NCBI GenBank assembly: GCA_027452205.1
Contig: DAIDGV010000015.1
Coordinates: 11,111 to 75,110, forward strand
Source: a candidate division FCPU426 bacterium
Lineage (GTDB): Bacteria; Oederibacteriota; Muellerivitia; Muellerivitales; Muellerivitaceae
Reading direction: 5' to 3'
DNA length: 64,000 nt
The notes below the pieces were generated by a model. The model made no database searches and was not told where the DNA came from. It saw only the letters and a program-made list of their open reading frames with translations. A program made the position numbers and the translations under genes. Position 1 is the stretch's first letter, and each line of letters starts with the position of its first letter. Shown here in pieces: positions 18,803 to 63,917 of this stretch.

Positions 18803-21442
18803 TTATTCCTGGATCTTCTTTTTCCATTCGGCCAAAAGATTCAAGGCATCCCGGGGAGTCAGGTCGTCCAATTCCAGGCTTTTAAGCTCTTCCAAAATGG
18901 GGTGGCTGGTCCCCGCCCCACCGAAGAAAGTGAGCTGATTGAGCCCTTCCGTGGAGGGGACTTGCGGTTGAGGCTCATCGGTTTCGGAGGCCTTTTCTTT
19001 TTTGACCGTGAAAGGATTGCCGGTCTCCAAGCTGGCCAGTATCTTCTTGGACCTTTCGACCACCGACTTGGGCACTCCCGCCAAACGGGCCACCTGGATG
19101 CCATAGCTCTTGTCCGTGCCGCCTTCCACGATCTTGCGTAGGAAAAGGATCTGCTCGTTCCATTCCCGCACCGCGATATTGAAGTTCTTCACGTTCGGGA
19201 AGGAGGAGGCCAAACGGGTCAGTTCGTGATAATGGGTAGCAAAGAGGGTGCGGGCCTTTAGCTTTTGGGCGATATGTTCCACCACCGCCCAAGCGATGGA
19301 GACTCCGTCAAAGGTGGATGTTCCCCGGCCAACCTCATCCAAGATAAGAAGGCTTCGGTTGGTGGCGTGATTGAGGATATTGGCGGTCTCGACCATTTCC
19401 ACCATGAAGGTACTTTGGCCCTGGGTAAGGGCATCCGAAGCGCCAACTCGGGAGAAAATACGGTCTACAATGCCGATCTTCATCTTCTTCGCGGGCACAT
19501 AGAACCCGACCTGGGCCATCAGCGCAAGCAGGGCCACCTGGCGGATATAGGTACTCTTCCCCGCCATATTAGGACCGGTCAAGACCACCACTTCGACCCC
19601 ATCCACTCCTAAGTGAGTGTCATTGGGCACGAATTGGTCCGAGGAAAGAATGCGGTCCAACACTGGGTGGCGGCCATCCACAATGGCGAGCTCAGAAGAA
19701 TCATCCACTTCAGGCCGCACATGACGGCCTGCGTCGGCCACTGTGGCCATACAACCGAATACGTCCAACTCGGCGATAATGCGGGCCACCCGTTGGAGCC
19801 GGTGCAGTTCCTTGGCCACTTGCGAGCGAATCGCGTCAAAAAGTTCATACTCGGTCCGGTCAGCCTTGTCCTGTGCCCCCAGTATCTTGCCTTCCATGTC
19901 TTTCAATTCTTGGGTGATGAAGCGCTCCGCATTCACCAGGGTCTGCTTGCGGTGGTAATCCTTGGGCACCTTGTCCAGGTTTGCTTTTGAGACCTCGATG
20001 TAATAACCGAAGACCGAGGTGTAACGCACTTTGAGGGAACTGATACCGGTCTTTTTCTTTTCCTTCTCTTCCAGGTTCGCGATCCATTGTTTGCCCTCAA
20101 TGGAGGCGCTTTTGAACTCGTCCAATTCAGCGTTATAGCCGGCCTTGATAAGCCCGCCTTCTTTTAAGGCTAGGGGCGGTTCATCGGCGATGGATTTCTC
20201 CAAAAGGTGGTGGATCTCTTTGAGGTTGTCCCACCCTTCCACCTTTTCGCGCAGCCATTCAGCCTTAAAACCTGAAAGAACTTGGTGGATCTTGGGCAAA
20301 AGGGCCAGGGTATTGCGTAAAGCCACCATATCCCGGGCATTGGCGGTACCACAGCCGATACGGCCCGAAAGACGTTCTAGGTCGGAAACTTCCCTGAAGA
20401 AATCCCTCAAATTTTCCAGGTCGCCCTTGCGGGATAAAAGCTCTTCCACCGCGTCCTGTCGGTGTTTGATCTGGGAAACCGAAGTCAGGGGCGTGACCAA
20501 CCATTGACGCAAGAGCCGCCCGCCCATCGAAGTGACCGTTTCATCCAACACCGATAGCAGTGTTCCTTCTTTGCCGCCATCCCTCATGGATTTGACCACT
20601 TCCAAATTGCGTTGGGTGGCTGCGTCCAGGACCATCCCCTCACCCACTTGGAAGGTCGAAAGGGTCACTAAGTGGGAAAGAACGCTATGAGTGGTCTCTT
20701 TGAGATATTGGATGATGGCCCCCGCCGAACAGATAGCCTGGTTCTGGTCTGACAGACCGAATCCATCCAGGGACTTCACTTGAAAATGTTCCAGCAGGAC
20801 TTCTTTGCATTCGTCCCCGGAGAATTTCCAGTCTTCCATGTGGGACTTCTTGGTGTCATTGAGGGACTTGATGACCTCCGCCCATTCCGATACGTCGGGC
20901 TGGGTATTGGCGACGAGTATCTCAGAGGGATTGAACTTTGATAGTTCATTCGTCGCTACGGAGAACCGGTCTGAACCATGCAATTCGCAGGTCTTGAACT
21001 CACCCGTGGTCACATCCACGATGGCTAGACCTAAAGCCTGGGTGGAATAAGAAAGGGCGGCTAGATAATTGTTGGATTTCTCATCCAGCATAGCGGCGGA
21101 AAGCACCGTGCCCGGGGTGATGACCCGGGTAACCTCGCGTTTGACCAAACCCTTGGCCTGGGCCGGGTCTTCGGTCTGTTCACAGATGGCAATGGAAAAA
21201 CCCGCCTTGACCAAGCGGGCAATATAGTTCTCGGAGGCGTGGTAAGGGATACCCGCCATTGGCACCCGGGTAGCGCCAGCACCCCGGGCGGTCAGGGTCA
21301 GGTTCAGGACCCGGGCCGCTGTCTTGGCGTCCTCGAAGAACATCTCGTAAAAATCGCCAAGACGGAAAAAGAGCATCTCGTCCTTATGGACGCGTTTCAT
21401 TTCCAGATATTGCCGCATCATCGGCGTTAATTCTTCGGACAT
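18803..21442 (-). CDS. mutS: DNA mismatch repair protein MutS
   Basis: 879 aa. N-terminus MTPMMRQYLEMK, Walker A GPNMAGKST, and TFATHYHELT motifs. Confidence 0.9.
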   Translation of the reverse strand: MSEELTPMMRQYLEMKRVHKDEMLFFRLGDFYEMFFEDAKTAARVLNLTLTARGAGATRVPMAGIPYHASENYIARLVKAGFSIAICEQTEDPAQAKGLVKREVTRVITPGTVLSAAMLDEKSNNYLAALSYSTQALGLAIVDVTTGEFKTCELHGSDRFSVATNELSKFNPSEILVANTQPDVSEWAEVIKSLNDTKKSHMEDWKFSGDECKEVLLEHFQVKSLDGFGLSDQNQAICSAGAIIQYLKETTHSVLSHLVTLSTFQVGEGMVLDAATQRNLEVVKSMRDGGKEGTLLSVLDETVTSMGGRLLRQWLVTPLTSVSQIKHRQDAVEELLSRKGDLENLRDFFREVSDLERLSGRIGCGTANARDMVALRNTLALLPKIHQVLSGFKAEWLREKVEGWDNLKEIHHLLEKSIADEPPLALKEGGLIKAGYNAELDEFKSASIEGKQWIANLEEKEKKKTGISSLKVRYTSVFGYYIEVSKANLDKVPKDYHRKQTLVNAERFITQELKDMEGKILGAQDKADRTEYELFDAIRSQVAKELHRLQRVARIIAELDVFGCMATVADAGRHVRPEVDDSSELAIVDGRHPVLDRILSSDQFVPNDTHLGVDGVEVVVLTGPNMAGKSTYIRQVALLALMAQVGFYVPAKKMKIGIVDRIFSRVGASDALTQGQSTFMVEMVETANILNHATNRSLLILDEVGRGTSTFDGVSIAWAVVEHIAQKLKARTLFATHYHELTRLASSFPNVKNFNIAVREWNEQILFLRKIVEGGTDKSYGIQVARLAGVPKSVVERSKKILASLETGNPFTVKKEKASETDEPQPQVPSTEGLNQLTFFGGAGTSHPILEELKSLELDDLTPRDALNLLAEWKKKIQE

Positions 21443-21482
21443 AAAAACCTTTGAACCACAGAGTACACAGAGTTCACAGAGT
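21443..21482. repeat. inverted-repeat arm (CACAGAG family), right flank of the GxxExxY gene
   Basis: AAAAACCTTTGAACCACAGAGTACACAGAGTTCACAGAGT. It is the reverse complement of the arm at 21892-21930 and is also found at 25668-25717 and 63782-63820. Confidence 0.7.
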
Positions 21483-21491
21483 AAATCAAAA

Positions 21492-21887
21492 TCAGAGGAC
21501 TATTCTTTTAACGCCATTTTTCATCGAAGCAACATTGAAATTGAGAAGTAATCCAATTCTTTTTTCCGTTAATTTCAAATACGTCAAAAGTTGAGCCTCA
21601 TGGACAGGTTTAACTTCTTCTACGGCTTTCAGCTCAACAATAACCTGATCCTCGACCAAAAGATCAATCCTAAAACCAGCGTCTAACTCAACTTCTTTAT
21701 ATCGAACAGGGACCGGCACTTGCTGTTCAACCTTCAAAGCTCGTGATTTCAACTCATACAACAAACAATGTTCATAGGCACTTTCCAACAACCCGGGGCC
21801 CAATTGAGTATGAACCGCATAAGCCGAATCCACGACCGCACCAGATATCTTATTCGTTTCTTCAGAAATCAAATTTTGGTTTTTCAT
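21492..21887 (-). CDS. GxxExxY-family protein (PD-(D/E)xK nuclease-like fold)
   Basis: 131 aa with the motif GLLESAYE and family-typical layout (DSAYAVHTQLGPGLLESAYEHCL...RIDLLVEDQVIVELKA). The CDS is bracketed within 5-9 nt on each side by inverted-repeat arms. Confidence 0.7.
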   Translation of the reverse strand: MKNQNLISEETNKISGAVVDSAYAVHTQLGPGLLESAYEHCLLYELKSRALKVEQQVPVPVRYKEVELDAGFRIDLLVEDQVIVELKAVEEVKPVHEAQLLTYLKLTEKRIGLLLNFNVASMKNGVKRIVL

Positions 21888-21891
21888 TTTA

Positions 21892-21930
21892 ACTCTGTGT
21901 ACTCTGTGTACTCTGTGGTTAAAGTGTTTT
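21892..21930. repeat. inverted-repeat arm (CACAGAG family), left flank of the GxxExxY gene
   Basis: ACTCTGTGTACTCTGTGTACTCTGTGGTTAAAGTGTTTT. It is the reverse complement of 21443-21482 with ~2 mismatches over ~38 nt. Confidence 0.7.
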
Positions 21931-23200
21931 AATCCTCAACAACGATGGCTTTTTCTTTGATCCGCTTCGACAACTTGTTGGCCAGCTTCTGGGCGGCGGT
22001 GCGGGTGGCAAAATGCCCGGTGCGCAGCTTATAAAGAACATAAGTTCCATCCGCCGCGTTCACCGTGACCACGTAATATTTATATCCTGCTTTGCGCAAG
22101 CCTTTTTCAGTCAGAAGAAGGTTGGCCTTCTTGGAATAGACCCCGATCTGCACATGGTAAGGGGTGGATTTGAGCACCGGTTGATCCACCGTCGCTTCTT
22201 GTTCCGCCTCTTCGGGCGTAGCGGCCTCTTCGATTGGCGTCGCCTCTTCGGTCTCGACCACGGTCGGGGTCACTCCTACTGTTGCAAAAGGCGGCACCAG
22301 GGCCGGAGTGGCCGTAACAGCAACCGTCACGGTCGGTGTAGGAACGATCGTGACGGAGGCTTGCAACGCAGGGTGCGTTTTAAGTAGTTCCGCCATACGC
22401 GTCTGGGCCTCGCCCACTTCGATCGCTTTAGGGTAATTGCTGACCAGCGTTTGATAGGCGGCGAAAGCTTGCTTCCATTTTTTCTCCATCTCATAGGTCT
22501 CACCCAACTTCAGATAGACCAGATTCAATTCGTCGTAAGTGGCATATTGATCCAGGATGCGTAAATAGCGATTCTCGGCATCGGAGAACTTTTGGGTCTT
22601 GAAGTAAGCGTTCCCCATGCCCAACAAAGCCTTGGGCGCCCAATTAGTTTGTTTCCCTTGATCCATGACCTTTTCGAACTCTTTGATGGCCAACTCGGTC
22701 TGTTCCGCCGCCAAATAGGAAGATCCCAACCAGTAGTGCACTTCCACCGCCATCGGGCTTTTTTCATAATGGTCTAGGAACTCTTTATAGGCCGAAGCCG
22801 CGTCCTCGTATTTGTCGGCCAAATAATATCGGTCGGCCAATTCCTTCTGGGCTTCCATTCCCTCGGGCTGGTCCTCGTATTCGGCGGCCACTTCCTGCAA
22901 CTGGGCCACCGACACTTCGAAATCCTCTTGCACTTTGGCCAGCATCAAGCGAGCCTGAGGAATGATACTGTCCATCGGGTGCTCCGCCACCAGGGGAGCC
23001 AGGATATCCTTGCAGTCTTTATAATCCTTATCGGCGAAATACTTCTTGGCCTTTTCGAAAAGTTCTTTCGTTTCGCCCGCCACCGGGGTAACCACGGAAT
23101 CTATCTCTTTTTTTTGGGCCGCCTCATCCGCCGCGATATCCGCCAATGCGGCCGATGTGACCATAAAACAGAGGAAAAGAAACCAAAGGGATCGACGCAT
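21929..23200 (-). CDS. secreted TPR-repeat protein with C-terminal SPOR (peptidoglycan-binding) domain
   Basis: Signal peptide, TPR-like helical repeats, then the C-terminal SPOR-like segment YHVQIGVYSKKANLL...AGYKYYVVTV...YKLRTGHFATRTAAQ. Confidence 0.6.
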   Translation of the reverse strand: MRRSLWFLFLCFMVTSAALADIAADEAAQKKEIDSVVTPVAGETKELFEKAKKYFADKDYKDCKDILAPLVAEHPMDSIIPQARLMLAKVQEDFEVSVAQLQEVAAEYEDQPEGMEAQKELADRYYLADKYEDAASAYKEFLDHYEKSPMAVEVHYWLGSSYLAAEQTELAIKEFEKVMDQGKQTNWAPKALLGMGNAYFKTQKFSDAENRYLRILDQYATYDELNLVYLKLGETYEMEKKWKQAFAAYQTLVSNYPKAIEVGEAQTRMAELLKTHPALQASVTIVPTPTVTVAVTATPALVPPFATVGVTPTVVETEEATPIEEAATPEEAEQEATVDQPVLKSTPYHVQIGVYSKKANLLLTEKGLRKAGYKYYVVTVNAADGTYVLYKLRTGHFATRTAAQKLANKLSKRIKEKAIVVED

Positions 23201-25667: not shown

Positions 25668-25790
25668 TCAAACCTTGAACCACAGGCTGCCTCCGGCAGC
25701 CACAGAGTACACAGAGTTTGGATTTTTACCAAAACCTTAATTCTTTGTCTCACTCTGAGCACTCTGTGTACTCTGTAGTTAGATTGTTTT
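25668..25790. repeat. 'empty' palindromic repeat unit of the CACAGAG family, exactly filling the scpA-scpB spacer
   Basis: Left arm: CAAACCTTGAACCACAG[GCTGCCTCCGGCAGC]CACAGAGTACACAGAGT. A 33-nt AT-rich loop follows. Right arm: CACTCTGAGCACTCTGTGTACTCTGTAGTTAGATTGTTTT. The right arm ends 1 nt into the scpA stop codon. Confidence 0.7.
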
Positions 25791-63767: not shown

Positions 63768-63781
63768 ATTTCCCTCATTTC

Positions 63782-63917
63782 AAACATTTTCACCACAGAG
63801 TACACGGAGTACACAGGGTGAAGATTGATTTTAAATCCAAAATTTCGAATTCTTAACAGCCGTACTCTGTGAACTCTGTGGCCGCCAAAGGCGGCCTGTG
63901 GTTCATGATGTTCAGCC
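63782..63917. repeat. 'empty' palindromic repeat unit of the CACAGAG family upstream of yajQ
   Basis: Left arm: AAACATTTTCACCACAGAGTACACGGAGTACACAGGGTG. An AT-rich loop follows (TTTTAAATCCAAAATTTCGAATTCTTAAC). Right arm: CCGTACTCTGTGAACTCTGTGG[CCGCCAAAGGCGGC]CTGTGGTTCATGATGTTC. Confidence 0.65.

Follow-up and report, generated by a model that had tools for sequence, protein, structure and literature searches.

A compact candidate mobile element formed by a GxxExxY nuclease gene and inverted heptamer arrays

The stretch of DNA analysed here (the window, 64,000 nucleotides of contig DAIDGV010000015.1 from a candidate division FCPU426 bacterium) carries, between mutS and a gene for a TPR/SPOR-domain protein, one small gene of the GxxExxY family enclosed by two inverted arms, and the same arms recur as two gene-less pairs in other operons of the window. 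All three of these elements, gene-bearing and gene-less alike, are recent and lineage-specific insertions. Across many phyla, this one nuclease family is tightly and exclusively linked to one kind of motif array, and gene-less copies of the arrays, which are far commoner than the gene-bearing ones, spread as units. With slightly better than even confidence, the arrangement is read as a compact mobile element of approximately 0.5 kb, whose GxxExxY nuclease would bind the arrays and promote the copying of both gene-bearing and gene-less units. This would represent a possibly new and minimal mechanism of mobility, and a family of mobile elements that is large, spread over many bacterial phyla and, it appears, undescribed. 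Neither the arrays nor their link to GxxExxY was found described in the literature, although subscription journals lay mostly outside the search and an earlier description is possible.

Insertions at three loci of the window

The orthologous loci of related genomes were fetched by way of MutS (90%, 88%, 83% and 81% identity) and YajQ (97%, 91% and 85%). The two closest MutS relatives (90% and 88%) display the identical gene order trpS-scpA-scpB-x-miaB-TPR-mutS, with a TPR/mutS spacer of 27-29 nt compared to 486 nt in the window and a scpA/scpB spacer of 11-12 nt compared to 146 nt. The rodZ/yajQ spacer measures 21-25 nt in the relatives reached through YajQ (97%, 91%, 85%) and 144 nt in the window, and five independent contigs encoding a 97%-identical YajQ have a spacer of 21 nt and no element. 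No arrays were present in the MutS-anchored loci of the relatives (L221-L225, 16-23 kb each), and in the approximately 50 kb sampled, relatives at 85-97% protein identity were without any of the elements. Given identical gene order, short spacers and the lack of elements in these relatives, all three window elements are therefore recent insertions, and the empty-site comparison of the mutS-TPR locus that the initial annotation had proposed finds the unit missing from both closest relatives. The closest MutS proteins, 88-90% identical, come from metagenome assemblies, while the MutS of Candidatus Aureabacteria is approximately 51% identical. An exact copy of the window's GxxExxY protein was not found on public contigs.

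The three elements lie between minus-strand genes of operons, namely the TPR/SPOR gene and mutS, scpA and scpB, and a rodZ-like gene and yajQ. Each insert is located behind the stop codon of the upstream gene and ahead of the ribosome-binding site of the next one. In the case of scpB and yajQ, an ancestral site of the GAGG type survives just 3' of the insert. The sequence ATTTRA is found at both scpA/scpB junctions, a possible ATTTAA duplication in a single case.

The arms of the gene-bearing unit form a 45-nt inverted repeat, 87% complementary and 403 nt apart, and each contains three tandem CACAGAGTN units (Table 1). Each arm is made up of an outer segment, AAAAACCTTTGAACC or GGTTAAAGTGTTTT, followed by three tandem 9-mers of the form CACAGAGT(A/T). 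Gaps of 4 nt at its start and 9 nt at its end separate the open reading frame (ORF) from the two arms, which bears out the enclosure of the gene by inverted repeats that had been noted at the outset with gaps of 5 and 9 nt. The arms also reach into the host genes: the AAAGG ribosome-binding site of mutS, 5 nt before its ATG, comes from the outer part of the adjacent arm, and the stop codon of the TPR/SPOR gene (21929-21931) falls in the opposite arm. When at most 3 mismatches are allowed, the 18-nt core of the arms occurs 10 times in the window and at exactly these three loci (0.01 expected), and the same loci hold 12 of the 13 window occurrences of CACAGAGT (0.84 expected). A second GxxExxY gene was not found in the window.

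The two gene-less arm pairs already reported for the window are real, and each bears a nested mini-hairpin that had escaped notice. The two copies can be aligned over their full length, lie in opposite orientations in the genome and run opposite ways relative to transcription, with AT-rich loops of 34 nt in the copy at 25668 and 44 nt in the copy at 63781. The 15-nt mini-hairpin, which is missing from the gene-bearing unit, is found in one arm of both gene-less copies, where it sits in the outermost heptamer with CACAG on both of its sides; the two mini-hairpins differ by one compensatory pair change (T:A to C:G). This pattern was not found elsewhere in the window, nor in any of the 234 loci fetched.

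The enclosed gene encodes a protein whose GxxExxY identity and PD-(D/E)xK fold, originally recognized from the sequence, are upheld by matches to PF13366 PDDEXK_3 (E=3.8e-44, 150.2 bits with a cut-off of 22) and TIGR04256 GxxExxY (E=8.1e-46, 155.2 bits with a cut-off of 35), with the catalytic residues kept. An alignment of 26 homologues at 59-72% identity has 30 invariant columns, including the name-giving residues G32, E35 and Y38 as well as D75, E85 and K87, which make up the catalytic set of PD-(D/E)xK enzymes. The AlphaFold model is confident (pLDDT 94.5) and its nearest structural neighbours include Cas4 and restriction-type nuclease domains; besides PF13366, profile searches returned only a weak match to Cas4 and no HUH or tyrosine transposase. 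At 50% identity, the family is comprised of 21,419 clusters (E<=1e-3) or 7,859 clusters (E<=1e-10), and a survey of PD-(D/E)xK families lists GxxExxY/PF13366 as a family of unknown function that has undergone multiple horizontal transfers (PMC3424549).

Table 1. Coordinates of the window elements, their parts and the adjoining host genes
Feature	Position	Strand	Description
Gene-bearing unit	21441-21933		intact 131-aa GxxExxY gene between two inverted arms
Arm at stop-codon side of GxxExxY gene	21441..21485		outer AAAAACCTTTGAACC + three CACAGAGT(A/T); abuts mutS start codon (21442)
GxxExxY / PDDEXK_3 gene	21492..21887	-	131 aa, intact, same orientation as flanking genes
Arm at start-codon side of GxxExxY gene	21889..21933		three ACTCTGTG units + GGTTAAAGTGTTTT
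mutS	18803..21442	-	host gene immediately downstream of gene-bearing unit
TPR/SPOR-domain gene	21929..23200	-	host gene immediately upstream of gene-bearing unit
Gene-less copy, scpA/scpB spacer	25668..25790		arm 25670-25717, loop 25718-25751, arm 25752-25790
Nested GC mini-hairpin	25686..25700		GCTGCC-TCC-GGCAGC; outermost unit split (CCACAG/.../CACAGAG)
Gene-less copy, rodZ-like/yajQ spacer	63781..63911		arm 63781-63819, loop 63820-63863, arm 63864-63911
Nested GC mini-hairpin	63881..63895		GCCGCC-AAA-GGCGGC

Arrays and GxxExxY genes across bacterial phyla

The link between the arrays and the GxxExxY gene was approached both from the DNA motif and from the protein. A motif-first scan of one genome per species with CACAGAGTNCACAGAGT, for which approximately 280 chance matches in 596 Gb are expected by our own estimate, returned at least 120 loci, and matches were kept only if an inverted partner was present. 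Approximately 60 loci share a single architecture, 5'-TTnAC-CACAGAG-n-CACAGAG-nn-CACAGAG ... CTCTGTG-nn-CTCTGTG-n-CTCTGTG-GTnAA-3', and belong to Bacteroidota, Planctomycetota, Acidobacteriota, Desulfobacterota, Kiritimatiellia, Chloroflexota, Spirochaetota, Beggiatoa-type Gammaproteobacteria and archaeal metagenome-assembled genomes (MAGs). Within these loci, picked by DNA motif alone, 59 array pairs are gene-less (loop of at most 150 nt), 7 are intermediate and 3 enclose a gene, which is always GxxExxY. Gene-less pairs thus outnumber gene-bearing ones by approximately 20:1, which answers a question raised in the initial annotation.

The protein-first sample was comprised of 80 metagenomic GxxExxY loci, 70 of them with enough flank. 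An array lies within 150 nt of the gene in 68 of the 70 (97%), compared to 29 of 544 control windows (5.3%), so that the presence of arms beside other GxxExxY genes, for which the initial annotation had also proposed a check, extends well beyond the window; the strict order of array, gene and inverted array is found in 34 of the 70. Ordinary host genes aside, GxxExxY was the only ORF found bracketed between array pairs, and other cargo in the form of four-helix-bundle/S23p proteins was not seen between arrays in 220 loci, S23p loci not having been searched directly. Further examples include a locus of the order gltX-hexapeptide transferase/GxxExxY/cysS with the array arrangement (P0014) and a sbcD/GxxExxY/sbcC locus (P0030) in which the gene is flanked on each side by a whole hairpin built from a CACAGAT variant. 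Cultured bacteria carry the element as well, in a core operon of Bacteroides finegoldii (L235; radA/GxxExxY, protein WP_032839887) and within the fabD/GxxExxY/fabG-acpP-fabF operon of Sphingomonas parapaucimobilis (L236 1495-1923).

The neighbour on the upstream side has the same orientation as the GxxExxY gene in 21 of 26 cases, and that on the downstream side in 17 of 22. In 20 of the 21 cases with a co-oriented upstream gene, no more than approximately 35 nt separate the stop codon of this gene from the array, and the gaps between ORF and array have medians of 11 and 9 nt. Gene-less copies occupy 32 co-directional, 12 convergent and 2 divergent spacers.

That gene-less units amplify along with their loop is directly evidenced by a pair of 289-nt gene-less copies in one locus (L041, 3765-4052 and 6416-6704), which are 92.7% identical, oppositely oriented and 2.6 kb apart, each bearing the arrays and a 208-nt loop with a GC-rich internal palindrome. 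The two gene-less copies of the window provide a second case of such a unit in more than one copy. An origin of the gene-less hairpins as decayed gene copies was considered and rejected, as 57 loops had no credible GxxExxY remnants and the weak GxxExxY matches in gene-less loops are translated array sequence. Decayed GxxExxY genes still within arrays do occur at two loci (L090 and L191), the latter holding two paralogues of which one is decayed. As a separate observation, several tandem gene-less hairpins are found within 1-3 kb at L162, L200, L143, L064 and L039, some of them beside a GxxExxY gene. Phages or plasmids were also rejected as the main habitat of the elements, as the hits include a single viral contig and eight records of plasmids or chromids; all eight are predicted to be non-mobilizable, and several are longer than 400 kb.

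The same association could arise if the arrays were recombination or transposition sites for an unlinked enzyme, such as a recombinase of the host or of another mobile element, and GxxExxY were a passenger with a role of its own, such as a defence or addiction nuclease. The vast numerical excess of gene-less copies would suit such a cassette, as would a minimal nuclease without joining activity that has Cas4 and restriction-type nuclease domains among its structural neighbours. Yet only one kind of cargo is found, unlike in integron or other cassette systems, no recombinase gene was seen near the three window elements or recurring in the fetched loci, and the 97% of GxxExxY genes that keep arrays suggest a mutual dependence of the two. 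Integron gene cassettes carry diverse cargo and a single attC site at the 3' end, and are accompanied by an adjacent IntI integrase, whereas the elements described here have one cargo kind and arrays on both sides, and are scattered singly in housekeeping operons. A passenger role for GxxExxY is thus considered unlikely, if still deserving of attention.

Many of the matches returned by the motif-first scan proved to be unrelated coding tandem repeats (Ruminococcus, Streptomyces and others), and those in Tychonema and a Planctomycetota MAG were set aside as different repeat families. Five loci of one Planctomycetota MAG (L001, L029, L045, L073 and L077) hold at least 5 copies of a longer repeat (...ggatggcgaaacggcgcgcggatgg...ttttcaacCACAGAGtaCACAGAGtttCACAGAGa...) that includes the array and has no inverted partner nearby, and may be either a different family or the end of a larger element. 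In Tychonema / Microcoleus (L016, L025, L053 and L071), a conserved sequence of approximately 90 nt surrounds two copies of CACAGAGT (gatttaacc...CACAGAGtaCACAGAGtccgagaatatatatctgaatcattccgatg...), with no inverted array.

Motif and base pairing in the arms

Over all lineages, the repeated unit of the arms is C-R-C-N-R-A-G, with a period of 9 in 59%, 8 in 21% and 10 in 14% of cases. The usual array contains three units (range 2-4) behind an outer flank with the consensus T-T-n-A-C, and symmetry between the flanks of an element reaches about -3 beyond the units. The heptamer varies by lineage, among the known forms being CACAGAG, CGCAGAG, CACGGAG, CACAAAG, CGCAAAG, CACCAAG and CGCCGAG, and a change of heptamer affects both arms of an element together. 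Most elements have the same bases at R2 and R5 in all of their units; these bases correlate only weakly with the GC content of the locus (rho 0.27-0.31) and can differ between elements of one locus, a pattern that suggests discrete recognition types of arrays.

At first sight, the joint change of both arms resembles covariation in an RNA stem, and the initial annotation had offered long stems, cut at RNase III-type sites, as a way of excising the gene from the mutS-containing transcript. In the general form of this explanation, the arms pair in the transcript to be cut by RNase III or to insulate or stabilize the message, with the gene merely enclosed as is the S23p ORF of 23S rRNA intervening sequences. 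Strong folding is indeed predicted for the window arms on both strands (z -3.7 to -6.5, as RNA or single-stranded DNA), and the 516-nt gene-bearing unit closes with a stem of approximately 45 bp. In addition, all elements are found in transcribed spacers and avoid divergent, promoter-bearing ones, their units are stop-free, and the 5' arm is purine-rich and resembles a Shine-Dalgarno sequence. The strong folding of the window arms is a consequence of the near identity of the window units, and a local effect of the arms on RNA stays conceivable within this genome.

Compared over 134 elements, the arms bear no mark of selection for pairing. Identity at the free position N4 is 0.60 between pairing and 0.61 between non-pairing units of gene-bearing elements (0.68 and 0.67 for gene-less ones), and the corresponding values for the spacers are 0.48 and 0.46 (gene-bearing) and 0.37 and 0.26 (gene-less). 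Mismatches in the sense RNA of 44 gene-bearing units amount to 50 G.U and 53 A.C, without strand bias, and covariation in a stem was rejected on these three sets of data. The partner arms of GC-rich lineages differ at N4 and in the spacers, and pair only in runs of 3-4 bp (e.g. L175 and L164). Selection for a stem gives no reason why C1, C3, A6 and G7 should be shared by so many phyla, nor does it account for the insertion of the units, and the two gene-less copies of the window are oppositely oriented to transcription. No Rfam family was matched at gathering or permissive thresholds. Excision by RNase III is weakened by these results, and an RNA element in general is quite improbable as the explanation of the arms.

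The lack of compensatory pairing and of a strand bias between G.U and A.C shows that a motif is conserved rather than an RNA stem. What is conserved in the arms is thus a sequence motif, arrayed in inverted orientation at a roughly helical period, and the arms are complementary as a result of this arrangement. Such an inverted motif array is characteristic of repeated protein-binding sites at the ends of an element.

Proposed mechanism and comparison with known systems

In the mobile element proposed here, the arrays would serve as binding sites of the GxxExxY nuclease, which would cut at or near them, and host repair or recombination would then copy gene-bearing and gene-less units to new sites. 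This route is preferred to a DDE-type cut-and-paste reaction, regarded as less likely because no target-site duplication is present. The gene would rely on read-through transcription of the host operon, its ribosome-binding site being plausibly supplied by purine-rich units of the array, and we infer that GxxExxY is itself the mobilising enzyme. A wider claim is held more tentatively, at somewhat less than even confidence: that GxxExxY genes and CRCNRAG arrays constitute pan-bacterial minimal autonomous elements, with typed recognition of the heptamer (CAC/CGC, GAG/AAG), that copy themselves and their gene-less derivatives into the gaps between stop codons and ribosome-binding sites of housekeeping operons, by a mechanism that leaves no target duplication and is unlike those of known transposase classes.

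Several points weigh against the proposed mechanism. The link between protein and array rests on co-localisation, and the presence of arrays and of GxxExxY genes per genome was sampled from parts of genomes only. A 125-aa PD-(D/E)xK protein is able to cut DNA but is not known to transfer strands, which leaves the insertion step unexplained. Direct repeats such as would mark a target-site duplication were not in excess among 140 elements, whatever their offset or length, and the exact ends of the element are not definable to the base. The arms of the window, being near-perfectly complementary, would form a strong RNA stem. Approximately 15% of GxxExxY genes are located between two complete hairpins rather than inside one, an arrangement that local pile-ups of hairpins may explain. 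Finally, the nearest GxxExxY protein has the same array type in 0.54 of cases compared to 0.29 after permutation (p=0.003), but host relatedness (similar host GC) confounds both this match between protein clades and array types and the one C-terminal protein column that follows CGC versus CAC, such that a coevolution of protein and array specificity is suggestive only.

Among known systems, the closest in their way of working are the repetitive extragenic palindromic (REP) sequences with their REP-associated tyrosine transposases (RAYTs), and miniature inverted-repeat transposable elements (MITEs) with an autonomous partner, yet the arrangement described here is a member of neither. REP repeats are imperfect palindromes of 20-40 nt with a GTAG or CGTC tag (PMC3733652). 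As in REP/REPIN and RAYT systems, inverted repeats enclose one small gene and are also dispersed as gene-less doublets, and these doublets are mostly found in spacers downstream of genes and behave as non-autonomous units. The REP/RAYT-like geometry proposed initially is thus borne out, with arrays adjacent to the gene in 68 of 70 loci. Membership in that family is not: the protein here is a PD-(D/E)xK nuclease where a RAYT is a HUH/Y1 transposase, and the arms are tandem 7-nt arrays behind TTnAC that bear neither the GTAG nor the CGTC tag. Furthermore, the core of the motif is common across phyla while REPs are species-specific, and the absence of the window elements from close relatives points to recent invasion rather than long residence.

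These last differences also bear on a domesticated system of the REP/RAYT kind, in which the arrays would have a host function (in DNA structure, mRNA stability or regulation) and a vertically inherited GxxExxY would maintain or disperse them. The geometry of the REPtron, with its flanked gene, dispersed doublets and avoidance of divergent spacers (PMC3116915, PMC3733652), is shared, whereas the relatives at 85-97% identity without any element, the multiple horizontal transfers published for the family (PMC3424549) and the decay of one of two paralogues at L191 oppose long-standing residence, and domestication appears very doubtful. Ordinary intrinsic terminators or chance palindromes would account for little beyond the fact that the elements are intergenic hairpins, and are scarcely credible given a motif far above chance expectation, the lack of any terminator-like call at the arms, flanks that are T-rich at the 5' and A-rich at the 3' side (the reverse of a terminator), positions within operons directly before downstream start codons, and relatives that do without them.

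The other precedent, a MITE-like unit with protein cargo, had been raised along with the idea that GxxExxY is the cognate nuclease of the repeats; both stand as descriptions of how the element may work, in light of the association and the insertions, while assignment to a MITE family does not. Tn7, Mu, and transposons of the hAT and CACTA types bear subterminal arrays of transposase-binding sites. The present elements resemble MITEs and insertion sequences in their terminal inverted repeats of repeated short sites (45 nt here), in short gene-less derivatives that outnumber the coding copy, and in their presence or absence between related genomes; they differ in having neither a DDE nor a serine/tyrosine transposase, no target-site duplication, and a coding element of only approximately 0.5 kb.

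Free-standing homing endonuclease genes include seg and mob of phage T4, and I-Ssp6803I is a homing enzyme of the PD-(D/E)xK type. The likeness lies in a small co-oriented nuclease gene that is placed between conserved housekeeping genes, is polymorphic in relatives and leaves no target duplication, although homing genes have neither bracketing inverted motif arrays nor abundant gene-less copies. The gene-less copies also recall the Correia elements of Neisseria, as inverted-repeat insertions of approximately 125-135 nt that are co-transcribed with their neighbours. Correia elements, for their part, produce a TA target duplication and have no associated coding copy. The intervening sequences of 23S rRNA with an S23p ORF (PMC4990558) similarly place a small ORF within inverted repeats in a transcribed essential locus that is not inactivated, but the elements here are outside rRNA, encode a different ORF family and give no sign of pairing as a selected feature.

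The combination of motif array and insertion polymorphism provides a testable role for a very large protein family of unknown function and, if the proposed mechanism is true, the elements may be among the smallest self-contained mobile units in bacteria. It also accounts for many hitherto unexplained hairpins between genes of Bacteroidota, Planctomycetota, Acidobacteriota, Desulfobacterota and other phyla, those of human-gut Bacteroides among them. Nucleases this small, with a motif specificity that comes in discrete variants, could be of use as tools. Given that the elements are strictly placed between a stop codon and a ribosome-binding site, one may ask how they insert into essential operons (mutS, fab, sbcCD, cysS) without doing harm.

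A further consequence concerns protein databases. The heptamer units are free of stop codons in any frame on either strand, and ORF callers therefore read through the arrays. The N-terminal extensions of the MNHRGTEDTE type on GxxExxY proteins in databases are the translated upstream heptamer array, and are spurious; examples include P0052, P0071, P0085, P0088, P0076 and P0103, as well as the region around 2990-3030 of L210. In Sphingomonas parapaucimobilis, the annotated coding sequence runs through the downstream array and has its stop at the array end. Approximately 20 of the best 150 family representatives (e.g. P0361-P0368) are 220-295 aa in length and carry two GxxExxY domains; these may be tandem elements fused across stop-free arrays, which the element would then also explain, or genuine two-domain proteins.

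The variant with CACAGAT units (CCACAGATAGCACAGAT...ATCTGTGTAATCTGTGG) is found at L131-L140, in the order sbcD/GxxExxY/sbcC, and at L056 (7301-7411). At L131 the gene is not enclosed by one hairpin but has a complete hairpin on either side, and the position of this variant between the genes of SbcCD, a nuclease of hairpins and palindromes, may be a coincidence.

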